In this document: positions 49,711-64,000 of the stretch, in pieces
How positions within the stretch are numbered: the stretch's first letter is position 1
Layout: the number at the start of each line of letters is the position of its first letter
Source of the DNA: Desulfomonilia bacterium
Lineage (GTDB): Bacteria; Desulfobacterota; Desulfomonilia; UBA1062
Length of the DNA stretch: 64,000 nucleotides
Reading direction: 5' to 3'
NCBI GenBank assembly: GCA_050014195.1
Contig: JBEKDT010000002.1
Location: 160,001-224,000, forward strand
The notes under the pieces: model-generated
What the model was told of the DNA's origin: nothing
The model's input: the letters and a program-made list of their open reading frames with translations, nothing else
The model's database searches: none
Position numbers and translations under genes: made by a program

Positions 49711-51105
49711 ATGAATGTCCTGATCCATGTGGACAATGCCATAAGAATCTTTGAGGCCGATCTGCCATTAGAGGCAGTGCAGGCCATAGAGGCGGACCTG
49801 ACGCTGCCAAATCCCAAGTGGGAGCAGGTGGAGACCTACAGCCGCAGCCGCAGGCGAAATTTCCAGCCCGAATTCATCAGGTATTATAAAAGGAAGAGTG
49901 GTGTGCTCCTCATGCCCAGGGGCTACATCCACACCCTCCGCTCCCGTCTGAAGGACGCCCCCTGCACCATCGTGGACAAGACCCGCTTATTGCCGAGCGT
50001 TCATTTTTCATTCAAAACGCAATTGCATCCCTATCAGATCTCAGCGGTCAAAGATGTCATCGGCAGGAGATTCGGTGTGCTGGAGGCACCGCCAGGTGCA
50101 GGCAAGACCGTCATGGCCCTAGCCGTCATTGCCCAGAGAAAACAGCCCGCACTGGTGATCGTCCACACCAAGGAGCTCATGTACCAGTGGCACAAGCGCT
50201 CGTACGAATTCCTCGGCATCCCTTTGGACGAGATAGGACTTATCGGCGATGGGAACAGCCAGATAGGCGACAGGCTCACCATTGCCATCATCAACTCGCT
50301 CTATAAAGTAATCGATGATGTCAAGCCTGTCATCGGCCACCTCGTGGTGGACGAGTGCCACCACACACCTGCCCGCACATTCACCGAGGCGGTGAGCCTC
50401 TTCGACAGCACCTTCATGCTGGGGCTTTCTGCCACACCGTATAGGAGGGACAAGCTCACCAAGATCATCTACTTCTATCTAGGCGACCGGGCGCACCAGA
50501 TCCATTCCCACGAACTCCAGGCCATAGAGAAGATCATGCGGGCCAAGCTCATATTGCGACATACCAACTGCGCCTACTACTTCGATGCGGACGAGTACCA
50601 GTACATGATCTCGGCCCTGGTGAACGATGGGAAAAGGAACAAGCTCATCGTGGAAGACGTGGTGAACCGGGTCTTTACACCTGAAAGCGGGATTGCGCTC
50701 GTCATCTCGGACCGGGTTGCCCACTGTGAGGATCTCTTCAATGCCATTACCGGCCGCGGGGTCAAGGCATGCCTGCTCACCGGCTCGGTGCAGGTCAAGG
50801 AGCGGGCCCGGATAGTAGAAGAACTTAACAGAAACCAGGCACAGGTCCTGGTCGCAACAGCCCAGCTCATCGGTGAAGGGTTCGACCTCAAGCAACTATC
50901 CTCGATTTTCCTGGCTACACCGATTAAATTCACCGGCAGGGTCAAGCAGTATATCGGCCGGATCCTCAGGGTGACCGAGGGCAAGGAAGACGCGTTTATC
51001 TTTGACTACCTCGACACCAACGGCATGCTCAAGAACAGCTTCGCCTCCCGCATGTCGGCATACTACGATTTGGGTGTGAAGCTGGATTCTGTTAAAGACT
51101 ACTAG
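49711..51105 (+). CDS. Superfamily 2 DEAD/DEAH helicase (XPB/ResIII-like)
   Basis: PGAGKT, DECH, SATP.R.D, EGFD, QYIGRILR. Confidence 0.9.
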   Translation: MNVLIHVDNAIRIFEADLPLEAVQAIEADLTLPNPKWEQVETYSRSRRRNFQPEFIRYYKRKSGVLLMPRGYIHTLRSRLKDAPCTIVDKTRLLPSVHFSFKTQLHPYQISAVKDVIGRRFGVLEAPPGAGKTVMALAVIAQRKQPALVIVHTKELMYQWHKRSYEFLGIPLDEIGLIGDGNSQIGDRLTIAIINSLYKVIDDVKPVIGHLVVDECHHTPARTFTEAVSLFDSTFMLGLSATPYRRDKLTKIIYFYLGDRAHQIHSHELQAIEKIMRAKLILRHTNCAYYFDADEYQYMISALVNDGKRNKLIVEDVVNRVFTPESGIALVISDRVAHCEDLFNAITGRGVKACLLTGSVQVKERARIVEELNRNQAQVLVATAQLIGEGFDLKQLSSIFLATPIKFTGRVKQYIGRILRVTEGKEDAFIFDYLDTNGMLKNSFASRMSAYYDLGVKLDSVKDY

Positions 51106-51184: not shown

Positions 51185-52198
51185 TTACCGGAACTCGGTT
51201 TCGGTCAACCTTTCCAGGGCACCCTGGCAGGATGATCCTACACCCGCAGTACAGGAGAAGCAGTGATTGCCGATGACGATTGCCCGGGTCTTCAATCTCT
51301 CAAAATCAAAATCATCGATGTGGTTCGGCGTTTTGCCTTCCACCGGCAAGTCCAGCATCTGGTTGAAATCACAATCATACAATCGCCCGTCCCACCCTAC
51401 TGAAACGGTGTTCCGGCACATCAAACAATGAATAGTCGAAGGATTGAATGATGTGTGAAGAACATTCATATAGTCTTCAAAGTTCTCCGACCGGATGAGG
51501 TACTCCAGATACCTGCCTACAGGCGAGTTGACCAGGCAATAGAGGGTATTGAAGACAACCCCATGCTCTCCTTTCAGCCGGGTCTTGTATTCATGTTCCA
51601 GTGCCTGCTGCGCCCCAGGCAGAAAGGCACCAACCGGATTATAGACAAGGTTCAGGATCAAGCCGCTTCCGGGTATGCCATACCCCCTTTCATTCAGCAG
51701 CCGCATGACCTCGATGATGCATCTGAAAACGCCGCCGCCCCTCTGCCTGTTGACCCTATCTTCATGGTAGTCGGGAAGGGAAGCAATGATTTCGACCCTG
51801 TGGTCCGCATAGAGATCAATGAAGTTTTTATATTGTTCGTCGCGGAGGATTACAAGGTTGGTGCGGACCATCAACCGCCGATTCAACGTGGCAGCTTCCC
51901 GGATAAACCAGGGAAGCTCCGGATTCATCTCCGGTGCGCCGCCCGTGATATCTATGGTACCGATCCGATGGGTACGCAGCACTTCCAGGCATTTTTCAAA
52001 CACCCTGCGTCCCATGATTTCCGATCGCTCCGGACCGGCCTGGACATGGCAGTGCCTGCATGAGAGGTTGCAGCGCTTACTCACATTCATCTGGAGTATT
52101 TCAATCGATTCAGATCTCAGCGGAGTGCTGATCCTTTTATGAAACGGGATCCTTACAGGGTTATTATTGAGGATCTCCATTTGCTCCAAAGAAGTCAT
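51185..52198 (-). CDS. arsS: Arsenosugar biosynthesis radical SAM protein ArsS family (Cys form)
   Basis: CNLSCRHCHVQAGP, DITGGAPE, LMCR...DCDFNQML, HCFSCTAGVGSSCQG. Confidence 0.88.
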   Translation of the reverse strand: MTSLEQMEILNNNPVRIPFHKRISTPLRSESIEILQMNVSKRCNLSCRHCHVQAGPERSEIMGRRVFEKCLEVLRTHRIGTIDITGGAPEMNPELPWFIREAATLNRRLMVRTNLVILRDEQYKNFIDLYADHRVEIIASLPDYHEDRVNRQRGGGVFRCIIEVMRLLNERGYGIPGSGLILNLVYNPVGAFLPGAQQALEHEYKTRLKGEHGVVFNTLYCLVNSPVGRYLEYLIRSENFEDYMNVLHTSFNPSTIHCLMCRNTVSVGWDGRLYDCDFNQMLDLPVEGKTPNHIDDFDFERLKTRAIVIGNHCFSCTAGVGSSCQGALERLTETEFR

Positions 52199-52199
52199 A

Positions 52200-52535
52200 T
52201 TACATTTCCTTCTTCTTGATAATCTTTCGCATCTGCGTGGAATGAGCCAGGACATCACCCGCTGTCATTGCAGCTCCGACATGTACTGCCTCCATCATCT
52301 CATCACTGGAAACGCTCAGCGAAAGGCATTTATTCGTGTAGGCATCAATGCAGTACGGGCAGTGACGCACAGTAGCCACCGTAAGGGCTATTAATGCCTT
52401 TTCCCGCTCGGTGAGCACGCCGGGTCCTGTTACCTCGGCGTAATATTCAAAGAACTTTTTGCCCTGCTCGGGGGCATACTCCGTTATGTTCGGAAAATCT
52501 TCGAGGTCTTTGGTTTCATAGTAAGGTCTGGACAT
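52200..52535 (-). CDS. ArsS-associated peroxidase-like CMD/AhpD protein
   Basis: LTEREKALIAL...CPYCIDAY...EAVHV; directly upstream of arsS. Confidence 0.88.
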   Translation of the reverse strand: MSRPYYETKDLEDFPNITEYAPEQGKKFFEYYAEVTGPGVLTEREKALIALTVATVRHCPYCIDAYTNKCLSLSVSSDEMMEAVHVGAAMTAGDVLAHSTQMRKIIKKKEM

Positions 52536-52939
52536 AGCAAATCTCCTTTAATATAAAATTACTTCTGCATGTTAAACACCTGTATCACGTGTTTGGCATC
52601 CTTCTTTAAGAAATTTATTTTATAATAGAGTCTCCTCAAGAATAAAACCAGTCTCTTACCTCATCTTGTGGGTTTTGCCACGTTGTCACATTATAGGCAT
52701 AACCGCACTGCTCGCACTAACTTATCGATTTCCAAAGCACACACGGGCGCATCACAAACACTAAGCTGCATACATCACACCAAGGGATTGATGCATGCTC
52801 ATATGCAAAGATCCCCCTATAAAAATCTTCCGCATAAAATCTTCATAGTTCTTTCTTCTTGACTTTCAACCCCGTTGACTTAACGTATATATAACTTAAA
52901 CTAAAGTAGGTTTTTATTAAATGAAAAGAGGCATGAGCC

Positions 52940-54316
52940 GTGAACCTTGACCCCTTGTTCCTCTCCCGCATCCAATTCGCGGTCACTGTTTCCTTTCACA
53001 TCATCTTCCCGTCTCTGACCATTGGACTCTCTCTATGGCTGGCAATGCTCCAGGGCATGTCTCAGGCTACCGGTAATGCCCTGTATCAAAGGCTCTTCGA
53101 TCTCTGGCTTAAGATCTTTACCATACTGTTCGCCATGGGCGTTGTCTCCGGCCTCGTGATGGCGTTCCAGTTCGGCGCCAATTGGAGTGTGATGTCTGTT
53201 AAGACAGGGCCTGTCCTGGGCCCGCTACTCGGTTATGAGGCCTTCACGGCATTCATGCTGGAGGCGACCTTCCTGGGTGTGGTCCTGTACGCACGCAACC
53301 GCGTGCCGCCATGGTTCTATTTCTTTTCCTGCTGCATGATCGCCCTCGGTTCGACCTTGTCGTCCTTCTGGATTCTCTGCAACAACAGCTGGATGCAGGT
53401 GCCGGTGGGTTATGAGATAATAAACGGAAAGATAACCCCGGTTGACTGGAGGGCCATCGTGCTCGGCCCTGTATTCCTGATCCGCTGGCTGCACATGCTG
53501 CTTGCATCTCTCCTGACCACCGGCATGTGCATCCTTGCTGCAGGCGCCTGGTATGTGCTCCGCAATATCCATCGCGCAGAGGCGCGGATCATGCTGGACT
53601 GGGGCCTGGGTTTGGCAGCAGTGCTGATGATCTTTCAGTTCTATCTCGGGGATATAAGCGGCAAGCACATGTATAAGTATCAGCCAGCTAAATTCGCTGC
53701 CATCGAGGCGCGGTGGCAGCATGAGCAGCCGGGTACGGAAGTATGGTTTGCAATCCCCGACGAGAAAAACAAGAGAAATCTCTTTGCCGTCACAACACCC
53801 TATGCAGGCAGTTGGATCGCAACAGGAAGCTGGACCGCGCCTGTTTCCGGACTGAGTGATTTTCCGGAAGAAGACTGGCCGCCCATTCTTATCCCGTTCT
53901 TTTCATTCCGCATCATGGTAGGCCTTGGGTTGTTGATGCTGGCCATCGGCTCGTTCGGCATATTGCTCCGCTTGCAGGGTCGACTGGAGACAACGCGCTG
54001 GTTCCTTTGGAGTGCGATTCTTGCCTTTCCAAGCGGCTTTATTGCCGTCATCATCGGCTGGTTCACTGCCGAAGTCGGCCGTCAGCCCTGGGTGGTATAC
54101 GGGCTCCTGCGTACAGCACAGACCGTGACACCGACACTGACCGGGGCGAATGTGCTCGCAACCCTTGTAGGCTATGTGGTGGTTTATACATTGATCTCCT
54201 CTTTCGGGACCTACTATATCTATGGCGTGCTGCGCAAAGGGCCTTCCAAGGGCGGACCTGAGACGACCGGAGCCTCCGGGACTGTAACCCCCGGCACTCT
54301 TGAGGCAAAGGAGTAA
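52940..54316 (+). CDS. cydA: Cytochrome bd quinol oxidase subunit I
   Basis: SRIQFA..FHIIFP, FQFG.NW, AFMLEA, QPAKFAAIE, EVGRQPW. Confidence 0.95.
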   Translation: MNLDPLFLSRIQFAVTVSFHIIFPSLTIGLSLWLAMLQGMSQATGNALYQRLFDLWLKIFTILFAMGVVSGLVMAFQFGANWSVMSVKTGPVLGPLLGYEAFTAFMLEATFLGVVLYARNRVPPWFYFFSCCMIALGSTLSSFWILCNNSWMQVPVGYEIINGKITPVDWRAIVLGPVFLIRWLHMLLASLLTTGMCILAAGAWYVLRNIHRAEARIMLDWGLGLAAVLMIFQFYLGDISGKHMYKYQPAKFAAIEARWQHEQPGTEVWFAIPDEKNKRNLFAVTTPYAGSWIATGSWTAPVSGLSDFPEEDWPPILIPFFSFRIMVGLGLLMLAIGSFGILLRLQGRLETTRWFLWSAILAFPSGFIAVIIGWFTAEVGRQPWVVYGLLRTAQTVTPTLTGANVLATLVGYVVVYTLISSFGTYYIYGVLRKGPSKGGPETTGASGTVTPGTLEAKE

Positions 54317-54321
54317 GCCCG

Positions 54322-55302
54322 ATGGATGTTACTTGGCTTCCCTTATTCTGGGCAGGCCTGATCGCCTTTGCCATGTTCGTTTATGTTGTCCTTGACGGCT
54401 ACGACCTCGGTATCGGCATTTTGTCCGGTACTACCCGCAATGAGGCTTATCGGGACGCCATGGTGAATGCCGTCTCTCCATTCTGGGACGGGAACGAAGT
54501 CTGGCTGGTCCTTATCGGGGCAAGTCTATTCGGTGCATTCCCCATGGTATATGCAATCTTTCTCCCCGCCTTCTACCTGCCCATAGCGTTGATGCTGCTC
54601 GCCTTGATCTTCCGGGGTGTTGCCATCGAGTTCCGTTATCATGCAAAACAAATGCGCCGGCTCTGGGACTCGGGATTCTTCCTCGGGTCTCTCATTGCGA
54701 GCTTTGTTCAAGGTGCGGCCATCGGCAGGATGGTGCAGGAACTGCCGGTAGCAGGCGGACAATATGCCGGGAGTGCCTTCGAGTGGCTGACACCGTTCTC
54801 CGTGCTCTGTGGAATCGGCCTGGCAATAGGCTATACGCTCCTCGGAGCCGCATGGCTGGTTTTGAAGACGGACGGCGCCTTGCGCGACTGGGCCTATCGC
54901 CGGTTAGGACGGCTGCTTGCAGGTGTCCTTATGATTCTCCTTATTGTCGCCGTGTTCGCACTTACTACGCATCTGCAGGTAAGGGACCGCTGGCTTCAGC
55001 ACTTGTGGCTGGTCATCTTTCCGTTGATCATCTTCCTGGCCTCCATCGGCTTATGGCTCGGGGTCCGCAGACGGAGCGACAGGGTTCCCTACGCCATGGC
55101 CGTTCTCATCTTTCTTGCCGCCTTTTTGTCGCTGGCAGGCAGCTTCTGGCCCTATATGATCCCGTTTACCGTAACGATCGAGACGGCGGCGGCACCGGTG
55201 CAGTCTCTCAGGTTCCTTTTCTACGGGGCGGGTATCATTGTCTTCCCCGTTGTTCTTATCTATACCGGCGTGGTTTATTGGGTTCTGAGGGGAAAGGTTT
55301 AG
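54322..55302 (+). CDS. cydB: Cytochrome bd quinol oxidase subunit II
   Basis: LDGYDLG, PFWDGNEVW, RGVAIEFR. Confidence 0.95.
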   Translation: MDVTWLPLFWAGLIAFAMFVYVVLDGYDLGIGILSGTTRNEAYRDAMVNAVSPFWDGNEVWLVLIGASLFGAFPMVYAIFLPAFYLPIALMLLALIFRGVAIEFRYHAKQMRRLWDSGFFLGSLIASFVQGAAIGRMVQELPVAGGQYAGSAFEWLTPFSVLCGIGLAIGYTLLGAAWLVLKTDGALRDWAYRRLGRLLAGVLMILLIVAVFALTTHLQVRDRWLQHLWLVIFPLIIFLASIGLWLGVRRRSDRVPYAMAVLIFLAAFLSLAGSFWPYMIPFTVTIETAAAPVQSLRFLFYGAGIIVFPVVLIYTGVVYWVLRGKV

Positions 55303-55314
55303 AAGGCTAGAGAA

Positions 55315-56460
55315 TTGCTCTCATACCCACCTCTTCTTCTCATTGCCGGGGCCAAAGGCGCAGTAGGTTCAACGGTAGCGGCTGCTATTTCAGCGATGAA
55401 AAAGGACCCGGATACAGTCCTCCCCTGGCTGACCACGGCACCTTTGTGTAATCACCTTGGTCCCTTCGGGGGTATGGAATTCTCCGGATGGGATGCTTCC
55501 CCCGAATCAATCAATCAGGCCATCGAATACCACAAGGTCCTCCCAAATAAATCCCTCCTTTATGAAGAGTATCTGGGCAAGATCCGGATTCATCAGGCCC
55601 CTTCGGGCGAACTGCCCCTTCATGCGCAGGTTGAACAGTTGATAGGGGATATTGAGGGTTTCAAGGCACTCTATCCCAAGACCCATCCGGTCCTGATCAA
55701 CCTTCTGCCGGCATGCAGGACGATCGATCTTTCGGGATTGGACCGGCTGGATCGGCTGTATTCGCATACGGATTCAACAAAATTCCCCGATCTGGCCTAT
55801 GCCCTTGCTGCAATCTTAACCGGTATCCCGGTCGTGAATTTCACATCCAATGCCCTCGAGCTGCCCGTGATCGTCGAAGAGGCGCTTAAGGCGGGCGTCC
55901 CTGTGTGCGGCCGTGACGGGAAGACCGGTCAGACCTACCTGAAGGTAGTGCTCGCTTCGGCCCTGAAGGCCCGCAGCCTTCAGGTTGACGGATGGTACAG
56001 TTTGAATATACTCGGCAACGAAGACGGCAGGAATCTTGCCGATCCCACGAAGGCATCAGGCAAAGTGGCCAACAAAACCGGGTTGCTGGAAGAGGTTCTC
56101 GGATATAAGGTTGGCAGGCAATATGGAACTGATTCCCATAAGGTCGTTATCGACTATTATCCACCCAGAGGTGATTGCAAAGAGGCGTGGGATGTCATCG
56201 ACTTTGCAGGCCTCTTCGGCCTGCCCATGAGCCTCAGGCTGAACCTGCAGGCGCGCGACTCCATCCTGGCAGCCCCCCTTGTCATCGACCTGGCCCGCTG
56301 GATGGCCGCCCTGCATGCTGCAGGCCGTTCAGGCCTGGTTCCGGAGTTGGGCTTCTATTTTAAGAAACCCCTGGGCCCCAATCCACCGGTGACCTTCCAG
56401 GATCAACTCGCAGCGCTTGATCGATTGGAAGTTGTTTGCAAGGGGCATATAAATAGTTGA
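55315..56460 (+). CDS. ino1: Myo-inositol-1-phosphate synthase family protein
   Basis: GRDGKTGQT, NILGNEDG, D.KEAWD, RDSILAAPLVIDLAR, FYFKKP. Confidence 0.82.
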   Translation: MLSYPPLLLIAGAKGAVGSTVAAAISAMKKDPDTVLPWLTTAPLCNHLGPFGGMEFSGWDASPESINQAIEYHKVLPNKSLLYEEYLGKIRIHQAPSGELPLHAQVEQLIGDIEGFKALYPKTHPVLINLLPACRTIDLSGLDRLDRLYSHTDSTKFPDLAYALAAILTGIPVVNFTSNALELPVIVEEALKAGVPVCGRDGKTGQTYLKVVLASALKARSLQVDGWYSLNILGNEDGRNLADPTKASGKVANKTGLLEEVLGYKVGRQYGTDSHKVVIDYYPPRGDCKEAWDVIDFAGLFGLPMSLRLNLQARDSILAAPLVIDLARWMAALHAAGRSGLVPELGFYFKKPLGPNPPVTFQDQLAALDRLEVVCKGHINS

Positions 56461-56485
56461 GCATCCTGGTAAGGGAGTATGCATC

Positions 56486-57376
56486 ATGAAGTTCGGGTAC
56501 AGCACCAATGCCTTTGTGAATTATTCCTTGTTCGATGCGGTAAACATGATTGCCGAGCTTGGGTTCGGCGGGGTCGAAATCATGGCCGACCGCCCCCATC
56601 TCTACCCGCAGGACTGGGGACACGAAGGCCTTATCCGGCTCAAAGACCTGATCCTCCAAAAGGGCCTTCGGATCACCAACCTGAACAGCTTCACCCTGTT
56701 CGCCGTGGGAGATACCTACCTTCCATCGTGGATAGAGCCCGTGAAAGAGAGACGGGATATCCGTATCCGCCATACCCTTGATTGCCTGAAACTCGCATCC
56801 TTTCTCGGGTGTGATAACATCTCCGTTCCCCCCGGCGGGCCCTTGCACGGAATTGCACGTCAGGAAGCCTTGTCCTTGTTCTATGATGGTCTCGATAAGG
56901 TCGTTCCCCTGGCCCAAGAGCTTCGGGTCAAGGTCCTTGTGGAACCCGAGCCGGACCTGCTCATGGAAAACACCCAGCAGTTCAAGGAGTTCATCCGGGA
57001 GGTCCGCTCGACCTTTGTGGGGCTCAACTTCGACATCGGCCATTTCTTCTGTGCCGGGGAAGAGCCTGGTAAAGCCTTTCAGGAGCTCCTGCCGTGGATC
57101 GGCCATGTCCATATCGAGGATATTGCGGAAAACCGGCGCCACCACCATCTTATCCCCGGGCTGGGGGCCATCGATTTTCAGCGTGTCCTTACAACTATAC
57201 GGCAAACCGGCTACCAGGGGGATATCAGCCTTGAGCTCTACACCTATGCGGACAGGCCTGTTGATGCCGGCCGGAAAAGCCTGACCTTTCTCCTGCCCCT
57301 CTTTCAGGAAGCAGGGTTTGATGTTGACATGCTGTTACGCAGAGTTACGAACCAAACAGGAGAAGAAGGAGGATGA
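56486..57376 (+). CDS. Sugar phosphate isomerase/epimerase (xylose isomerase-like TIM barrel)
   Basis: FGYSTNAF, EPEP, DIGH, HVHIED, H.HL.PG.G, ELY. Confidence 0.88.
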   Translation: MKFGYSTNAFVNYSLFDAVNMIAELGFGGVEIMADRPHLYPQDWGHEGLIRLKDLILQKGLRITNLNSFTLFAVGDTYLPSWIEPVKERRDIRIRHTLDCLKLASFLGCDNISVPPGGPLHGIARQEALSLFYDGLDKVVPLAQELRVKVLVEPEPDLLMENTQQFKEFIREVRSTFVGLNFDIGHFFCAGEEPGKAFQELLPWIGHVHIEDIAENRRHHHLIPGLGAIDFQRVLTTIRQTGYQGDISLELYTYADRPVDAGRKSLTFLLPLFQEAGFDVDMLLRRVTNQTGEEGG

Positions 57377-57380
57377 CTCT

Positions 57381-58175
57381 TTGAATTATTCGATGCCCCC
57401 CAATCAGGATTCAAAACATTCTCTGAAGAAACCCGGGGAAGACACCTACTTCGGTTTCCGCAAGGTCCCTGTCCGGGAGAAGGCCGGATACGTACTCCGG
57501 CACTTCAACACCATAGCCCTCAAGTACGATTTCATGAACACCATCTTAAGCCTCGGACTTCACTACCTCTGGAAACGTTTGTCCGTAAAGGCCTTGGTGT
57601 TGAAGCCGGGGGACTTGGTGATCGATGTATGCGGTGGCACTGCAGACCTCTCTATCCTTGCCGCAAGGGCTGTGGGCGGCAGAGGCCGGGTCGTTCTCTA
57701 TGACATCAACCGGGCCATGATGGAAGGGGGAAGGCCCAAGGTTGCAAGGACCTTACTTGCAAAGAGAATCCTTTATGTCCAGGGGGATGCGGAATGCATG
57801 TGTTTTCTTGAAGGCAGTTTCGATGCGGCAATGGTGGGCTTCGGGATCAGGAACCTGACCAATATGGAGAAGGGGCTTGCGGAGATGTACCGGGTACTCA
57901 AACCCGGGGGCAAGATGATGTGCCTTGAGTTCTCCCTTCCCACATCTTCATGGTTCCGCCTCCTCTATGATTTCTATTCTTTTCACCTCATGCCCCTTGC
58001 CGGGCGACTCCTGGCCGGTACTCGCGAGGCATATCTCTACCTCCCCGAATCAATCCGCAAGTTCCCGCAGCCGGATGTATTTGCCGCTATGCTCAAAGGT
58101 ACCGGGTTTTCCGCAGTGGAGTACCAAAGGCTTACCAACGGGATTGCAGTCATTTATACCGGGGTAAAGGCATGA
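57381..58175 (+). CDS. ubiE: UbiE/MenG family quinone C-methyltransferase
   Basis: TYFGF, YDFMN..LS.GLH..WK, DVCGGTAD, GFGIRN, RVLKPGG, YLPESIRKFP; TTG start after GGAGG. Confidence 0.85.
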   Translation: MNYSMPPNQDSKHSLKKPGEDTYFGFRKVPVREKAGYVLRHFNTIALKYDFMNTILSLGLHYLWKRLSVKALVLKPGDLVIDVCGGTADLSILAARAVGGRGRVVLYDINRAMMEGGRPKVARTLLAKRILYVQGDAECMCFLEGSFDAAMVGFGIRNLTNMEKGLAEMYRVLKPGGKMMCLEFSLPTSSWFRLLYDFYSFHLMPLAGRLLAGTREAYLYLPESIRKFPQPDVFAAMLKGTGFSAVEYQRLTNGIAVIYTGVKA

Positions 58176-58768
58176 AGCTGAACTGGGCGGAGCGCCTGGC
58201 GGTCAATAACCCCATAAGGCCTCTGCAACAGCGCCTTGAGATCGGCTGGATGAAGAAAAATATCCGTCTCAACCCTAACGCCCTTGTCTTGGAGGTAGGG
58301 TGCGGCAGGGGGGCAGGGTCTTATCTTATCAAGAAGATGTTTGATCCTGCCTTTGTCCATGCCATGGATCTTGATATTCGGATGATCCGAAAGGCGCATG
58401 ACTATCTCTCCCCTGAAAAAAGGAATGGGATTTCTTTTTTTGTCGGCGACGTGGTCCGGCTGCCCTACCGAGACAGCACCATGGATGCCGTGTTCGGGTT
58501 CGGGGTCCTCCACCATGTCCCGGACTGGCAAGAGGCCTTGGCCGAGATCGTAAGGGTATTGAAGGTCGGCGGGACCTACTTCTTCGAGGAGCTCTACCCA
58601 ACGCTTTACCAGAACATTATCACCAGGCACATCCTCCTCCATCCCACTGAGAACCGTTTCCGCAGTCAAGACCTGAAAGAGGCCCTGAAAAATGCGGGCC
58701 TGGAGCTGAAAAATTATTTAGAGATCCCGAAGCTGGAAATCTTCGGGTATGCGACCAAACAGGCGTAG
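58172..58768 (+). CDS. Class I SAM-dependent methyltransferase
   Basis: LEVGCGRG, FGVLHHVPDW, RVLK.GG; ATGA overlap with the ubiE-like gene. Confidence 0.9.
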   Translation: MKLNWAERLAVNNPIRPLQQRLEIGWMKKNIRLNPNALVLEVGCGRGAGSYLIKKMFDPAFVHAMDLDIRMIRKAHDYLSPEKRNGISFFVGDVVRLPYRDSTMDAVFGFGVLHHVPDWQEALAEIVRVLKVGGTYFFEELYPTLYQNIITRHILLHPTENRFRSQDLKEALKNAGLELKNYLEIPKLEIFGYATKQA

Positions 58769-58965
58769 ACTACGAGAAATTATCGGAACGGATATCAGGA
58801 GAATATCCATATATCTCTCCCAAAAACTTTTACTTTTCAGTCCTCTTTGTAACCGGTCATTTATAGAAGAAATCTACAGTTGATAGTAGGCAGTTGAGAC
58901 CGGTGATTTATCGCAGGAATCTCCACTTTTCCATGATAAATATATCTCAATGATTTCTTATTAAT

Positions 58966-60912
58966 TCATTGATGTAAGTTGTTGATAAAGTCGGGACCCT
59001 TCTTAAGAACATCGGAAGATTTTTTGTTTGCTAGCAATTTTATCAATTTTTGTTGAGCATCCCAATAATTTGGATCTGTAATTAATACTTTTCTATATTG
59101 CTCAACTGCCTTATCAATTTTGCCTTGTGATAAAAGTGCGTTTCCGAGATTATAATGTGCTTCCGATAAATTTGGCTTAATCTGAAGTGCATTATTAAAG
59201 TAATGAATTGCTTCGTTAACTCTACCTTGAGATTCTAAACAAATACCCATGTTTACATTCGCAGATGCATTTTCAGATTTTATCTCCAGGACCTTAGAGA
59301 ACATCTTGATTGCTCCATCAAATCTTTTCTGATGCATGTATGCAACACCAAGACTATTATAAGCATCTTCATAAGTCGGATCAATTAATATAGCCTTGGT
59401 ATAATAACTAACTGCTTTTGATATATCACCTTTCATTATAAATATTTCACCCATTATTAGATTTATATATTTATCATTGGGAGCTACTTTCAAGGCCTCA
59501 TTACAATGTTTTGCTGCGCCGTCAAGATCACCTTCACCAATTAGGGTCTTTGCAAGCCAAAGGTGGGCTACATCATTATTAACAGTCACCTTGATGCAAT
59601 GCTCAAAAAGAGTATCACTATTTTTCCAATACCCCACTTGTATCCACGAATATATCATAAGAATAGAAAGGCTTGCCCCTGCTAATGTAAACAAGTAGTA
59701 TTTTTGAAGTCGCCATTTTTCGAGTAATTCAGGTACACCCCAGGCAACCATGATAAATATACCAATAAAAGGGACATAGGCCCATCGATCAGCCATAGCC
59801 GGCCAAATGCCCGACTGGTATAATCCACTTACTGGTATAAGGGTACCAGCATACCAAAGCCACCCTACGAGAAGATAAGGATGTCTTCGGGAGGTTACAA
59901 TAACTATAGCACTGATAAATACAATCAAGAGAAAGGCTCCGAAACTCTGCCAAAATGGAATAGATTGTGGGAAGGGATAATATACCGCCAGGTTATGTGG
60001 CCAGATCGCCTTCCCTATGTATGCAATATATGAAACTAGGGCATTACCAATCCTTAAACCTATTGGGATTTGTTCATATGATATAATATTAACATATATT
60101 GATAGTTTAAGCGATAATGTGGAGACATAGACGGAGAGAAAAGATAAAAGAATTAAAGGGATTTTATCAAGGATTACCCGTGATTTCAGTAAGTCACCAA
60201 GACTACTTATGACAGATTTATGAGATTGGATAGAACTCCCAGATCCTATATGACTAAACGAGAGACGATCAAGAGGCCAATAGTCAAGTAATAGTAATAC
60301 AAAGGGTAATGTTATGAGCATGGGTTTTGCGAGAAGTCCCATGATAAAACTGATAACTACTAGTAGATATCGAATAAGGGATGGACGCTTTGTATAATTG
60401 AAGTAGGTAAGCATGACTATAAACCAAAAACAGGTGCTTAAGAGATTCTTCCTCTCTGCAATCCATGCTACAGTATCCACATTGATTGGATGGAGTGCAA
60501 AGAGCGCTGCTACAAAGGCACTCTTCCATTGAGATCCTGTCATAACTCTAAGTACTAAAAACAAGAGTAAAGTATTTATGATGTGGAGAAAAAGGTTAGT
60601 AAGATGATGCTTGCCTGCATCCAGCCCCCACAGTTGTATATCAAGCATGTGTGAAATCAATGTGAGAGGATGCCAGTAGTTTTTTTCTTCGCCAGAAAGA
60701 CTGAATGCCCACTTGATATTTTCTAGAGTAATCCCTGAAATAATGTGCTCATTTTCTGTAACATAAAAATTGTCATCAACGCTAACAAAGTCGTTATTCT
60801 TGGTTTGCAAGTATACGGAGCAGGTTAATATTATAAGAAATATAGAGATAATAATAGCGTGTTTTTCAAAAATATCATATTTTTGTTTTATGTCTTTGTT
60901 AAGGTAATTCAT
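58966..60912 (-). CDS. TMTC-like (GT-C-fold) membrane protein with C-terminal TPRs
   Basis: DD motif (SVDDNFY), WHPLT, HP..V..VAWIAERK, ADRWAY, multiple TPRs; AT-rich. Confidence 0.85.
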   Translation of the reverse strand: MNYLNKDIKQKYDIFEKHAIIISIFLIILTCSVYLQTKNNDFVSVDDNFYVTENEHIISGITLENIKWAFSLSGEEKNYWHPLTLISHMLDIQLWGLDAGKHHLTNLFLHIINTLLLFLVLRVMTGSQWKSAFVAALFALHPINVDTVAWIAERKNLLSTCFWFIVMLTYFNYTKRPSLIRYLLVVISFIMGLLAKPMLITLPFVLLLLDYWPLDRLSFSHIGSGSSIQSHKSVISSLGDLLKSRVILDKIPLILLSFLSVYVSTLSLKLSIYVNIISYEQIPIGLRIGNALVSYIAYIGKAIWPHNLAVYYPFPQSIPFWQSFGAFLLIVFISAIVIVTSRRHPYLLVGWLWYAGTLIPVSGLYQSGIWPAMADRWAYVPFIGIFIMVAWGVPELLEKWRLQKYYLFTLAGASLSILMIYSWIQVGYWKNSDTLFEHCIKVTVNNDVAHLWLAKTLIGEGDLDGAAKHCNEALKVAPNDKYINLIMGEIFIMKGDISKAVSYYTKAILIDPTYEDAYNSLGVAYMHQKRFDGAIKMFSKVLEIKSENASANVNMGICLESQGRVNEAIHYFNNALQIKPNLSEAHYNLGNALLSQGKIDKAVEQYRKVLITDPNYWDAQQKLIKLLANKKSSDVLKKGPDFINNLHQ

Positions 60913-61393
60913 TGCGTTAACTTACTATCAGCAAATCCATTATTGACAGAAAAGAAATTTATCTAAATCCTACAGATTATAGTAACCCTTTTCATTAAGT
61001 TATCTTCCTCCTAAGTTAGAGATATCCAATAAATAAGTCAAGTCTCCGATTTTATGTAAATTAGCATCTCCGATATAGCGCTACGCTACTAGAAGATCTT
61101 CCATCTACATGGTCATACCCGTTCATCTTCAATAGAAAAAATACATAGGAGAAAACATAGATTATGCCAGAGGCAACGAACTGATTTGGATTTTTCAAAA
61201 TCATAGATTTCGTGCCATGAGCAACGTTCTGGTATGAAGAGATAGGCTGCGTAGCTTTCAACTCAAGATCATCAGTTTTCAGACATCATAAAACCGAGAT
61301 GAAATCATATCTTTTATTATTTCTTTTGGTTATCATATGATTAAGGGGGTGTGCCATGCCCTACCATAAACATAGGCAAGGGAAGATGTGTGT

Positions 61394-62194
61394 ATGATGT
61401 TCTTCATGAGGAGGCTCAAAAACAGGGTCATTGCGAAGGTGATTACCGGTCTCCCGGCTTTGGCTAAAGGATTCATCGAAGCATATAAGCCATGGGAATC
61501 TGAGGACATCCCGTGGACTCTTGTGGAGAAGCCTTTGGTACAGAGTACTGTTGCCATCGTCACTACTGCGGGTGTGCATCGTAAAGACCAAAAACCCTTC
61601 AACATGCATGATAAAAACGGTGACCCTTCTTTTCGGGAGATCGACGGCAATACCCCGCTGCGAGATCTCATGATCACCCATGACTATTATGACCACACCG
61701 ATGCCGAAAAAGACTTGAACATCGTCTTCCCCATAGAACGTCTGCAGGAATTCGCTTCAGAGGGTATTATTGGAAAAGTAGCGGATGCGCATTACACATT
61801 CATGGGTCACATCATGGGGCCGCACATCTACACGCTCATGGAGATGAGTACCCCGGAGGTGGCTGCCAGATTAAAGAAGAAGGAAGTGGACTATGTTTTG
61901 TTGACACCGGGTTGAGCTATCTGCAATCAGTCCGTGGGATTGATTCAGCGGGGTATCGAGGCTGCCGGTATACCCACCATCGGGATCTCCATTGTCAGGC
62001 AGTATACGCAAAAGGTTAAACCGCCCAGGACGATCTTCCTCAAGTGGCCCTTCGGGCACCCGCTGGGTGAGCCGAATCACATTGATCAACAACGTGCCGT
62101 TCTGCGTAAGGCATTTGAAGCCCTGATGGAAATTAAAACACCCGGAACAATTATTGATGTACCTTGGCGATGGAAAAGGGAAAGCTATGGGTAG
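61394..62194 (+). CDS. Selenoprotein of the glycine/sarcosine/betaine/proline reductase selenoprotein B (GrdB/PrdB-like) family; UGA at 61913-61915 read as Sec
   Basis: Track ORFs 61388-61915 and 61934-62194 are in the same frame, joined by TGA-GCT-ATC-TGC, giving LTPG-U-AIC-NQSVGLIQR..EAAGIPT; also TTAGVH, GDPSFR, D.N..FP..RL and P.GHPLG motifs. Confidence 0.88.
61916..61948 (+). promoter_or_regulatory. Bacterial SECIS element
   Basis: Stem AATCAGTCC/GGATTGATT with loop GTG, extended by CTG/CAG; the loop starts 18 nt after the UGA and begins with G. Confidence 0.75.
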
Positions 62195-62307
62195 CCGAAA
62201 TGAAACTCCGCGCAGCAAGCTTAAGCGGTTTATAAGGAGTATTTTCCTTTTTCTCCTCTCCTGAATCCACAATTCGTCAGGACAGACGAATTGGATGTAC
62301 TTTACGT

Positions 62308-62339
62308 TCACCCTTCAGGGTGAGGGACATGGATGTCCC
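62308..62339. other. Tandem hairpins between convergent genes
   Basis: TCACCCT-TC-AGGGTGA and GGGACAT-GG-ATGTCCC; followed by a remnant resembling the CTCCCACCAGG repeat. Confidence 0.45.
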
Positions 62340-62455
62340 GAATCACTCCCACCAGGAGAGGAAGATTTTGTACAAACCCCTGTATTGGTTTTTTCATCCG
62401 ATCATAGGATCCCGGGATAGAACACGTGCTCTCTTTCCTTCTGGATTGTAACGGC

Positions 62456-63169
62456 TCATTCCTTTTCAAGGGGAAAGGTCAAGGTTGCCCCATACCACCC
62501 TATGACCGCCACAATGGGGACCAGCGAAAGGATCAAAAAGAAATAGACAATACCCTCCGTGGCCAAGGAGGTGAAGACATCGGGAAACAAGACCCGCCAG
62601 AGAAAGACAATGATGGAGACTGCCATGAGGATGCCGGATAAGAATATCTTGATCCTGACCGGCCTCATGGATTTTGCCTGATAATTGAGCCACCAAGTGA
62701 AATAGCCGGTCAGGACAGCCGGAACGGAAAAAAGGATGCCGGCTCCCAGACAGTGGAATGCTGTTGTCTCAAAAGATTTCACATCGGTGAGGAGATAAAG
62801 AAGGCTGAAGAGTGCCGGCGAGATCATGAATACGATCGGGAAGTGCACCAGCATGGGGTGCGGGTGGCGGCGAAGAAAGGGAAACCGCTCCAACACTATT
62901 TCTAATGGATTGGGTAAAGACCTTAACGCCTTATCTTTCTTCCTGAAGGTCCCAACAAGGTAAAATTTATCCAGGACCTCCGGGCCATGGGGCGCGGCCT
63001 CGATATCTGTGGTAAGGTCGCAGCCGGCATGGTGGCGTTTCATGTGAAGCCCTGCCTTCCACAGCTTGCTCGCACTGACGTCGATCACCCTGCCCTTGTG
63101 GGCTATGTACACAGGCTGTCCATCTTTACCGTTGAATGCCGAGAGAGATTCCAGGTCGAATTCCTTCAT
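62456..63169 (-). CDS. Cytochrome b5-like heme domain fused to a DUF2231 membrane domain
   Basis: FNGKDG..YIA..G.V.DVS, HHAG.DLT, APHG; then HPMLVHFPI and about 4 TM segments. Confidence 0.87.
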   Translation of the reverse strand: MKEFDLESLSAFNGKDGQPVYIAHKGRVIDVSASKLWKAGLHMKRHHAGCDLTTDIEAAPHGPEVLDKFYLVGTFRKKDKALRSLPNPLEIVLERFPFLRRHPHPMLVHFPIVFMISPALFSLLYLLTDVKSFETTAFHCLGAGILFSVPAVLTGYFTWWLNYQAKSMRPVRIKIFLSGILMAVSIIVFLWRVLFPDVFTSLATEGIVYFFLILSLVPIVAVIGWYGATLTFPLEKE

Positions 63170-63228
63170 ATCGTCCTTTCATGATAGGGCAAACGGATAA
63201 TCCCAAGCCGACAGTTCCCTTTCGTTAT

Positions 63229-64000
63229 TCATAAGACCACCCAGCTCAGCAGTGTTACCATGAGCATGGACAATGGATAATAGCTTGCCCGGTTGAAAAG
63301 GCGCACGGCCTCTCCTGAATCTTCGGCCCGATAAAGACGGTAGCCGGGGAGAAGAAGCAAATAAAAAGCAGAAAACAATGCACCCAGGATATAGAGATAA
63401 TTTAAGTGCCTCGGCGAAAGCCAGAACATGGCCAGACTCATGGCCGCAGTGATCACAAGAGAAAAGAAGATAATATGAGTGGCTCGCTGGGCACCGAAGC
63501 GTACAGGGATAGTCCTGGCATGTATCTTTCTGTCAATATCCAGATCGGACAGATCGTTGGGCACATTCTGCCCCCCGATCTCCCAGAAAAAAAGCCAGAG
63601 GAATATCGTTACCACAATATGCGTCGAAGGATTCGGATTTACGGCAAACACAGCAGCAACGGGCCCTGATGTCTTAACTAATCCGCTGATGACACTCCGC
63701 ATATGGGTGATTTTCAGGAGATAGCAATAGATCACCTCCAGGAAAGCGGCCGAGAGAAAAATGACAGGGCAAACAGGGTTAAGGAGGAAGGCCCCTACCA
63801 GTGCCAGCACTGCCCAGGCAGAAGTCCAGAACAATGCTTCCTTGTAACTCAGCATCCCCTGAGCCAGGGGATGGCGTACGAAGACACTATCCAGGTCCGG
63901 TCTTGATTCGCTTGGTGTGCTTGAACACATAATCTCCTGGTCAACACGGTAATCGATGAGGTCATTGAGCGCATACACTGCCGTGTAACCCGAGAAGGCG
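63229..64000 (-). CDS. UbiA family prenyltransferase (5' end lies beyond the window)
   Basis: Frame open to the edge (AFSGYTAVYALNDLIDYRVD); Asp-rich motifs NDLID..D and NDLSD..D...TIP; RHPL. Confidence 0.88.
   Translation of the reverse strand, partial: AFSGYTAVYALNDLIDYRVDQEIMCSSTPSESRPDLDSVFVRHPLAQGMLSYKEALFWTSAWAVLALVGAFLLNPVCPVIFLSAAFLEVIYCYLLKITHMRSVISGLVKTSGPVAAVFAVNPNPSTHIVVTIFLWLFFWEIGGQNVPNDLSDLDIDRKIHARTIPVRFGAQRATHIIFFSLVITAAMSLAMFWLSPRHLNYLYILGALFSAFYLLLLPGYRLYRAEDSGEAVRLFNRASYYPLSMLMVTLLSWVVL

Follow-up and report, generated by a model that had tools for sequence, protein, structure and literature searches.

A sugar-phosphate cyclase, TIM-barrel, UbiE and UbiA gene cluster appended to a cytochrome bd operon in a Desulfomonilia bacterium: candidate genes for a quinol-type lipid

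A conserved biosynthetic gene cluster is appended to the cytochrome bd operon of a Desulfomonilia bacterium, and its gene content suggests that it may make a prenylated, methylated quinol-type lipid, with a ring derived from a sugar phosphate, for use in O2 reduction. We regard this reading as evenly balanced between being right and being wrong. The cluster lies in a stretch of 64,000 nucleotides (the window, positions 160001-224000 of contig C2) of the host genome G000, a 4.2 Mb assembly of 29 contigs for which marker genes indicate 100% completeness; genomes, contigs, loci and families carry our own G, C, L and f numbers, and coordinates are those of the window unless contig C1 or C2 is named. 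Its six genes encode a cyclase resembling inositol-phosphate synthase (MIPS), a xylose-isomerase-like TIM barrel, a UbiE-family methyltransferase, a small S-adenosylmethionine (SAM)-dependent methyltransferase (MT), a cytochrome b5-DUF2231 fusion and a UbiA-superfamily prenyltransferase. From the MIPS-like gene through UbiA they form one conserved cluster, which is linked in several families to genes of terminal oxidases (bd, cbb3) and to genes resembling alternative complex III (ACIII).

Proteins of the window were mapped by tblastn onto 80 loci, the best among 567 confirmed ones that encode relatives of the MIPS-like protein, and occurrence in the phylum was counted in 301 evenly sampled genomes. 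The TIM barrel appeared to be an obligate partner of the cyclase: its gene follows the MIPS-like gene in 74 of the 80 loci, and in the remaining six fewer than 460 nt are left downstream of that gene before the locus ends. UbiE lies within 20 of these loci, MT within 11 (beside UbiE or UbiA), UbiA within 9, the cytochrome b5-DUF2231 gene within 7 and cydA within 5. A complementary view was obtained from 20 of the 35 UbiA-orthologue loci, a selection that leaves out several close relatives and the majority of genomes known from the MIPS-like clusters. There the neighbours of UbiA are cytochrome b5-DUF2231 (10 loci), MT (8, beside UbiE or UbiA), UbiE (6), TIM (2) and cydAB (2), and in L116 and L117 UbiA stands beside genes for transketolase, transaldolase or glucose-6-phosphate dehydrogenase. 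TIM orthologues (33 of 301 genomes) and UbiA orthologues (35 of 301, 43-64% identity) coincide in 20 genomes of 10 families, with about 3.8 expected if they were independent, a figure that overstates the association since kin are not independent. An earlier annotation of the window made from its letters alone, here called the sequence-only reading, had proposed that these genes form a pathway and would co-occur elsewhere. This expectation held, as the MIPS-like/TIM pair is adjacent throughout the 74 loci, and UbiE, MT, cytochrome b5-DUF2231 and UbiA recur beside it in several families.

In the window, cydA and cydB, adjacent, co-oriented and each matching its subunit family, are followed without a break by the MIPS-like, TIM, UbiE and MT genes (Table 1; gene calls rest on the open reading frame (ORF) list with Pfam, and curated-model scores on NCBIfam with its cut-offs). 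The gaps are 5 nt for cydA-cydB, 12 nt for cydB-MIPS-like and 25 nt for MIPS-like-TIM. UbiE most likely starts at TTG 57381 or ATG 57393, that is 4 or 16 nt past the TIM stop, and both are favoured over the start at 57318 given by the ORF finder; the UbiE stop and the MT start share an ATGA at 58172-58175. The tight packing that the sequence-only reading had described is therefore real. A promoter-like site, a pattern match only, precedes cydA at 52875-52902. The terminator scan of the stretch returned 12 sites against 11.9 expected from shuffles, which makes it uninformative about operon ends, so co-transcription is suggested by the spacing only.

Table 1. Genes of the cytochrome bd operon, the appended cluster and the DNA inserted into it, in window coordinates
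Feature	Position	Strand	Evidence and remarks
cydA, cytochrome bd quinol oxidase subunit I	52940-54316	+	PF01654 486.7 bits; first gene of the run
cydB, cytochrome bd subunit II	54322-55302	+	PF02322 284.7; TIGR00203 149, above the cut-off of 117.3
MIPS-like NAD-dependent sugar-phosphate cyclase, type 1, 381 aa	55315-56460	+	PF01658 101.3, PF07994 74.7
Xylose-isomerase-like TIM-barrel enzyme	56486-57376	+	PF01261 136.4 bits
UbiE/MenG-family quinol C-methyltransferase	57381-58175 (start inferred)	+	PF01209 239.6 bits
Small class I SAM methyltransferase (MT), 198 aa, candidate O-methyltransferase	58172-58768	+	PF08241 76.3 bits
Tetratricopeptide-repeat (TPR) gene, 648 aa	58966-60912	-	TPR families; AT-rich; insertion, outside the pathway
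PrdB/GrdB-family selenoprotein gene	61388-62197	+	TIGR04483; in-frame TGA
Cytochrome b5-DUF2231 fusion	62456-63169	-	PF09990 59.5, PF00173 24.2 bits
Cluster-type UbiA-superfamily prenyltransferase	63229-64000, continuing past the window to C2:224242	-	PF01040 107 bits

The cytochrome b5-DUF2231 and UbiA genes face this run from the opposite strand. The 3.7 kb between the two arms (58769-62455) hold the TPR gene, with a GC content of 31-41% compared with 52-58% in the flanks, and a PrdB-like selenoprotein gene. In L017 the stops of MT and cytochrome b5-DUF2231 are 7 nt apart, and L019 and L089 are as compact; all three show the order MIPS-TIM-UbiE-(MT)-cytb5-UbiA with no insertion, and in L017 and L019 MT is met by convergent cytochrome b5-DUF2231 and UbiA genes with no counterpart of the TPR gene. 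Since these relatives are free of the spacer, the 3.7 kb are an insertion into a conserved convergent cluster, and all six biosynthetic genes belong together. The sequence-only reading had already described two genes converging on the run across an AT-rich insertion, and the relatives bear it out. Gaps of 4-5 kb occur at the same spot in L018 and L021, with no TPR match, and the MT/cytochrome b5-DUF2231 junction looks like an insertion hot spot.

The MIPS-like protein matches the catalytic and NAD-binding domains of MIPS (PF01658 and PF07994) above their cut-offs. Its alignment to the A. fulgidus enzyme (1u1i) keeps the equivalents of D225, N255, D261, K274, K278, K306, D332 and K367, which we take to be the catalytic residues of MIPS, so NAD-dependent oxidation and aldol cyclisation are probably retained. 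The protein is otherwise divergent: its best PDB match (156 bits) covers residues 106-353 only, and the canonical MIPS model TIGR03450 scores 35.4 with a cut-off of 638. A maximum-likelihood tree of 28 sequences resolves three clades, each with 100/99 support, namely type 1 with the window protein (on a stem of 2.11 substitutions per site), type 2, and canonical MIPS of 439-480 aa. By these scores and this tree, type 1 stands outside the clade of housekeeping and characterised MIPS, and one genome (G134) holds a type-1 and a canonical enzyme together. Full-length type-1 orthologues were found in 12 of the 301 genomes, the host included, with 56-66% identity and at least 418 bits; the next matches in the sample are open frames of about 400-560 aa with at most 188 bits. 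The closest public records include L015, with a MIPS-like protein of 94% identity.

The TIM-barrel protein falls below all NCBIfam equivalog cut-offs (57 against 300 for IolO, 24.4 against 250 for the EboE model NF035939). Its structure model has a pLDDT of 88.6, and the nearest folds, UlaE, MJ1311, Art22, IolE, IolI and AsbF, mix epimerases (UlaE and tagatose epimerases), isomerases (Art22, IolI) and dehydratases (IolE, AsbF). In L119 (genome G194) a TIM orthologue of 55% identity is followed by a cyclase of the dehydroquinate synthase (DHQS)-like family with PF01761 and PF24621, which scores 551.7 on PRK06203 (cut-off 333) and 224 on AroB, under the cut-off of 305. After it come a true UbiG (TIGR01983 261.4, cut-off 102.95) at the position equivalent to MT, a UbiA orthologue and a UbiB-like kinase, with cydAB divergently upstream and CcoN within 17 kb. 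Similarly, in L155 (G245) a TIM orthologue of 57% identity precedes a DHQS-like cyclase, 51% identical to that of G194, and a polyprenyl synthetase. In L149, L150, L152 and L153 a pair of TIM paralogues (36-47% identity) comes after the type-2 MIPS-like gene. In L112 (G041:C4, 11022-13830; family f42) a TIM orthologue of 51% identity lies upstream of UbiE with no adjoining cyclase, its other neighbour being a protein of 501 aa that has an MTHFR domain at its C-terminus. Thus the cyclase is replaceable and the TIM barrel is constant; as a TIM orthologue stands beside either cyclase family, the cyclase product would be an intermediate and not inositol as such.

This logic recalls the ebo clusters, to which the sequence-only reading had linked the window while calling their product unresolved. 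The latter statement is outdated: a 2026 preprint ties ebo to thallusin and describes a cyclitol that is turned into an aromatic scaffold and prenylated by EboC, a UbiA-type enzyme. EboD is a mannose-6-phosphate cyclase, and the preprint proposes that Ino1 with two isomerase/dehydratases stands in for it in an actinobacterial variant. The likeness lies in the combination of a cyclase (DHQS-like EboD or MIPS), a xylose-isomerase-type TIM barrel and a UbiA-family enzyme. The ebo-like trait of a sugar-phosphate cyclase (DHQS-like or Ino1), a TIM partner and UbiA is present in our loci, where MIPS-like and DHQS-like cyclases likewise alternate beside one TIM orthologue. Moreover, the sister clade of type 1 occurs in an Ino1-type ebo-like cluster, L154 (G200:C213, 2809-9327), which encodes a type-2 MIPS-like protein, a protein like the C-terminal part of squalene-hopene cyclase, a TIM barrel 46% identical to that of the window, UbiA, a type I phosphodiesterase and a second TIM barrel. 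The ring-forming part of the proposed ebo link is upheld by L154; the link does not extend to the remainder, since the TIM barrel fails the EboE model. No EboC-named model is found among the NCBIfam matches of UbiA at E<=1e-3, the presence of such a model in the library being unverified. Pfam assigns none of the ORFs in the region covered, which starts at 52.9 kb and extends 20 kb beyond the cluster, to EboA, EboB (TatD) or EboF (phosphodiesterase), in agreement with the remark in the sequence-only reading that no EboA or TatD partner is visible. Unlike ebo, the studied loci carry UbiE, an O-methyltransferase or UbiG, cytochrome b5-DUF2231, a UbiB-like kinase and a polyprenyl synthase, and they lie in a respiratory-oxidase context of Desulfobacterota.

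The full UbiA gene (G000:C2:223229-224242) encodes 337 aa, but its start may lie further downstream, as homologues are about 312 aa long. Its Asp-rich motifs, N93-D94-x2-D97-x3-D101 and N226...D230-x2-D233-x3-D237, are invariant in 25 orthologues. The only curated model matched is the generic 'ubiA_other' TIGR01475, at 90 bits with a cut-off of 180.8. Scores on the MqnP models are far below their cut-offs (51.8/420, 39.4/375 and 35.2/430), those on MenA models are at most 21 bits, and PRK12888 (52.8/364) and TIGR01474 (40.2/275) are no better. Four futalosine-positive genomes (G020, G092, G134 and G136) hold a separate MqnP-like gene, with 210-317 bits on TIGR01475 and 275-325 bits on MqnP_DT, and the first three of them carry the cluster-type UbiA alongside it. 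The cluster UbiA is thus, by its sequence, a separate paralogue and not MqnP, MenA or the 4-hydroxybenzoate UbiA, a placement that comes from curated-model scores and paralogue coexistence. The clade is nevertheless auto-named '4-hydroxybenzoate polyprenyltransferase' in public records. The nearest solved structures are AfUbiA and archaeal DGGGP synthase, at E of about 1e-3.

The UbiE of the window scores above two family cut-offs (TIGR01934, 238 against 158.35; NF001244, 216.8 against 216) and is the sole strong PF01209 match in the host. Its best-scoring NCBIfam model is MpqE of the methyl-plastoquinone pathway of Nitrospirota, at 273.6 but under the cut-off of 335. UbiE copies of at least 54% identity occur in about 38 of the 301 genomes, 25 of which are UbiA holders, and typical copies show 37-42%; in G241 the high-identity copy lies beside UbiA, and a 39% copy lies 3.3 kb from an MqnA/D-family match on the same contig. 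The sequence-only reading had named grouping of both enzymes with canonical MqnP and MenG, and independent assortment of ino1 and TIM, as a second outcome that would count against it, beside a failure of the genes to co-occur. The results divide, with UbiA apart from MqnP and MenA and below all cut-offs, and UbiE in the canonical UbiE/MenG family, and neither adverse outcome came about completely. The small MT scores 35.4 on the UbiG model TIGR01983, below its cut-off of 102.95, and by this score is no member of that family.

The N-terminal domain of the cytochrome b5-DUF2231 protein matches the M. burtonii cytochrome b5 6vz6 with Z 13.6, rmsd 1.3 and 50% identity. Histidines H42, H46 and H61 and an RRHPHP...H motif are invariant, and the haem-ligand histidines of cytochrome b5 are kept. 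The C-terminal part, a four-helix membrane bundle, bears the RRHPHP...H motif; a fold search with DUF2231 returned generic four-helix bundles only, at Z 9-12, an uninformative range for helical bundles, and the ESM Atlas yielded no match beyond the family of the protein itself. UbiA and this protein were also considered as a CtaB/CtaA-like pair for haem O or A, an idea that was rejected as the CtaB model gives 29 against 210 and as the bd and cbb3 oxidases are not known to use haem O or A.

The link to oxygen respiration is repeated across lineages. The five MIPS-like loci with cydA belong to the window's own lineage, and CcoN occurs in seven MIPS-like loci, plus L119, L107 and L108. In L023, L026, L031, L034, L038, L056 and L080 the MIPS-like gene is preceded by a cbb3 oxidase (CcoN, FixO/cytochrome c) and a P-type ATPase, and this group of loci also has NrfD and cytochrome c genes. 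One of them, L038, combines a cbb3 oxidase with MIPS-like, TIM, UbiB-like kinase, UbiE, MT and UbiA genes; UbiB-like kinases (TIGR01982, 429.6 against 487.55) are also present in L034, L043 and L119. In L107-L110, L089 and L080 the cluster is flanked by genes for ActB-like molybdopterin/FeS proteins (about 990 aa), whose partners, in the loci checked, are of the NrfD type. In family f35 (L107-L110, in G191, G266, G243 and G161) a block of UbiE-MT-cytb5-DUF2231-UbiA, or of UbiA-cytb5, abuts an ACIII-like operon, which in L107 and L108 is followed by CcoN. No MqnA/D, MenB-like, TIM or type-1 MIPS-like match was obtained in these four f35 genomes.

The sequence-only reading had asked whether the host has a menaquinone pathway, and recognisable head-group genes of both known routes turned out to be missing. 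In G000, PF02621 (MqnA/D) has 0 matches, no MqnE/C match exceeds 48 bits, MenB reaches at best 131.6 against 342.7 among all 32 candidates scored, and MenD 82.4 against 244.2. The genome has two UbiA-family genes, that of the cluster and a MenA-like one on C1. In the phylum sample MqnA/D was found in 161 of the 301 genomes, MenB-like in 37, both in 8 and neither in 111, where eight MenB candidates were scored per genome and misses are possible; a UbiE-like gene (E<=1e-35) is present in 245. The 111 genomes have either unrecognised head-group routes or divergent forms that the markers miss. As they share the host's gap, the host inventory fits only weakly the need for an unrecognised head-group route, and the phylogenetic profile was rejected as support for a replacement of menaquinone synthesis, since the 111 are without both markers regardless. 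A 2026 survey likewise notes genomes with neither menaquinone pathway. The phylum mostly uses the futalosine pathway.

From gene families and gene order we infer the following sequence of events, in which each chemical step is a proposal, as are an aromatic ring, the action of the product as a quinone and its role in the cell. The MIPS-like enzyme would cyclise a hexose phosphate with NAD+ to an inositol or inosose phosphate. The TIM barrel, a metal-dependent enolising enzyme with the IolE/AsbF/sugar-epimerase fold, could then eliminate phosphate and/or water on the way towards a polyhydroxybenzene. The cluster UbiA would add a polyprenyl chain, UbiE would C-methylate the ring and MT would O-methylate it. 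The membrane cytochrome b5-DUF2231 protein may give or take electrons for ring oxidation or aromatisation. The product would act as electron donor to cytochrome bd (to ACIII and cbb3 oxidase elsewhere) for the reduction of O2.

A bolder form of this proposal, which we think doubtful, is a hydroxylase-free and O2-independent route to demethoxy-ubiquinone or another methoxy-benzoquinone of the ubiquinone type. The cyclase and a TIM dehydratase would turn a hexose phosphate into hydroxyquinol or tetrahydroxybenzene, with the ring oxygens coming from the sugar. UbiA, the O-methyltransferase (UbiG in some lineages) and UbiE would then yield the quinol without UbiC, UbiD/X, UbiH/I/F or UbiU/V/T. Inosose or deoxy-inosose can dehydrate to polyhydroxybenzenes, and the native substrate of UbiE is 2-methoxy-6-polyprenyl-benzoquinol. 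Such a quinone, of higher potential, might serve O2 reduction linked to bd, cbb3 and ACIII in strict anaerobes, beside or instead of menaquinone. The late steps of ubiquinone synthesis are indeed echoed by a UbiA with intact Asp motifs, a UbiE above its cut-offs, and UbiG and UbiB-like proteins in related loci; in contrast, the cluster UbiA is below all 4-hydroxybenzoate prenyltransferase cut-offs, UbiC, UbiD/UbiX, UbiH/I/F and UbiU/V/T are not in the examined clusters, and the cyclase and TIM barrel stand where ring supply and hydroxylation would be needed. It is this set of UbiG, UbiE, UbiA and UbiB beside a cyclase and TIM barrel, with no UbiC, UbiD/X or hydroxylase, that suggests a hydroxylase-free route.

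A number of results weigh against a cyclitol-derived quinol. UbiE is in reach in only 20 of the 80 MIPS-like loci and UbiA in only 9. Of the 35 genomes with a UbiA orthologue, 15, including family f35, have neither a TIM orthologue nor a type-1 MIPS-like protein, so that the tailoring module can evidently work with another ring source; conversely, 4 of the 12 type-1 holders gave no UbiA orthologue with this query. Among the same 12 holders MqnA/D occurs in 5, a MenB-like protein in 1 and neither in 6. The fold search cannot part a dehydratase from an epimerase or isomerase, as the classes lie within one order of magnitude in E value, and with such mixed matches the reaction type of the TIM barrel is not assignable. 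No UbiB-like (ABC1) kinase was found in the host. The sequencing-run search found the stretch in 24 DNA runs and in 0 RNA runs. The cluster UbiE is the only UbiE in four futalosine-positive genomes (G020, G060, G092 and G134), where the role of MenG must be either its sole function or one of its functions; UbiE may accordingly serve menaquinone synthesis as well. Finally, the host has a MenA-like prenyltransferase (G000:C1:52109-53053, minus strand; L106 8109-9053) with 109.5 on TIGR00751 (cut-off 102.15) and a best model, PRK05951, at 218 against 239. With this gene, UbiE could simply finish menaquinone from salvaged dihydroxynaphthoate (DHNA); given the missing MenB, MenD, MqnA/D and MqnE/C, the host would either salvage DHNA or use an unknown naphthoate route.

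The last two points are the core of an alternative in which two unrelated functions adjoin. Here UbiE is MenG and finishes menaquinone, after the MenA-like enzyme of C1 has prenylated a naphthoate from salvaged DHNA or an unrecognised route, the MIPS-like and TIM enzymes make an inositol-type solute or head group, and UbiE adjoins cydAB because the bd oxidase uses menaquinol. We find this rather unlikely, for all that UbiE exceeds the UbiE/MenG family cut-offs, that 60 of the 80 MIPS-TIM loci are without UbiE within the DNA examined, and that the MIPS-TIM pair and the futalosine pathway are not mutually exclusive in the profile. Late futalosine steps do employ a UbiA-family and a UbiE-family enzyme (MqnP, MenG), as the cluster does, but the host has neither MqnA/D nor MqnE/C and the cluster UbiA reaches 52 of the 420 bits set for MqnP. 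Two separate functions also leave unexplained a TIM orthologue beside a DHQS-like cyclase with UbiG, UbiA and a UbiB-like kinase or with a polyprenyl synthase, and a non-MqnP UbiA that travels with cytochrome b5-DUF2231 and MT beside UbiE and MIPS-TIM. The type-1 enzyme is moreover not a housekeeping MIPS, as its coexistence with a canonical one in G134 indicates, and TIM and UbiA co-occur at about five times expectation.

Should the six genes work together, their product need not be a quinol. It could be a secondary metabolite of the ebo type, a prenylated aromatic compound (thallusin-like or some other meroterpenoid) with a signalling or protective role; the position of the genes beside an oxidase would then be incidental or regulatory. 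In its logic the ring module corresponds to the alternatives of Ino1/Ino2/Ino3 and EboD in ebo clusters, and L154 offers both the sister MIPS-like clade and a related TIM barrel. Against this stand the missing EboA, EboB (TatD) and EboF in the window and in L001, the low EboE score and the absence of an EboC-named model among the UbiA matches noted above, and UbiE, UbiG, UbiB-like and polyprenyl synthase partners that, together with a recurring location next to bd, cbb3 and ACIII genes in different families, point to a quinone; we hold the secondary-metabolite explanation to be improbable. More improbable still is that the ring is never aromatised, UbiA joining a polyprenyl or phytanyl chain by an ether- or C-glycoside-like bond to a methylated cyclitol phosphate to give a membrane or carrier lipid. 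The nearest solved relatives of UbiA include the ether-forming archaeal DGGGP synthase beside AfUbiA, albeit only at E of about 1e-3, 'ubiA_other' is a subfamily including such enzymes, and the TIM fold suits epimerases as well as dehydratases. Yet quinol or phenol rings are the substrates of UbiE-family enzymes, whose cut-offs are exceeded here, and of the true UbiG in L119, and a membrane redox partner with b5 haem in an oxidase context would be unexpected for a structural lipid.

The literature search found no report on this cluster, on DUF2231 with cytochrome b5 or on a cyclitol-derived respiratory quinone. The cluster joins two known kinds of chemistry, cyclitol-to-aromatic conversion of the ebo type and UbiA/UbiE tailoring, in a new arrangement and context. 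To our knowledge, every isoprenoid quinone head group starts from chorismate or from an aromatic derived from tyrosine. Three hydroxylations of the ring are needed for a high-potential benzoquinone, and this need ties the history of such quinones to O2 or to the UbiU/V/T system. If a quinol-type lipid is indeed the product, its ready-oxygenated sugar-phosphate ring would be a further, mechanistically different origin of a respiratory cofactor, made without oxygen. It would explain quinol oxidases in relatives of sulfate reducers that are without both menaquinone head-group pathways, provide a large mis-named UbiA clade, DUF2231 and a deep clade of MIPS-like proteins with a function, and extend the cyclitol-to-aromatic logic of ebo and thallusin from signalling into core bioenergetics. 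The 24 DNA runs that carry the stretch are all peat or wetland metagenomes, and the oxic-anoxic interface makes the handling of O2 by anaerobes ecologically important there. Louie and Mohn reportedly described an unusual quinoid in Desulfomonile tiedjei in 1999, which is a lead only.

Several further observations concern DNA outside the pathway. The selenoprotein gene in the insertion is absent from the gene list of the sequence-only reading. At positions 19-147 its ORF 61388-61915 fits the model of D-proline reductase PrdB (TIGR04483, 126.8 bits), and it ends at a TGA; when this codon is read as selenocysteine (PGUAICNQ), the frame extends to 62197. A 146-aa ORF at 61871-62311 on the minus strand overlaps it, matches no family and is probably spurious. 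Upstream of cydA and divergent from it, the minus strand encodes at 51185-52535 a 357-aa radical SAM protein that carries DUF3641 and a small CMD/AhpD-like protein of 111 aa. Farther upstream lies a ResIII/DEAD helicase gene (49711-51105), which is kept in L016-L018 and L021.

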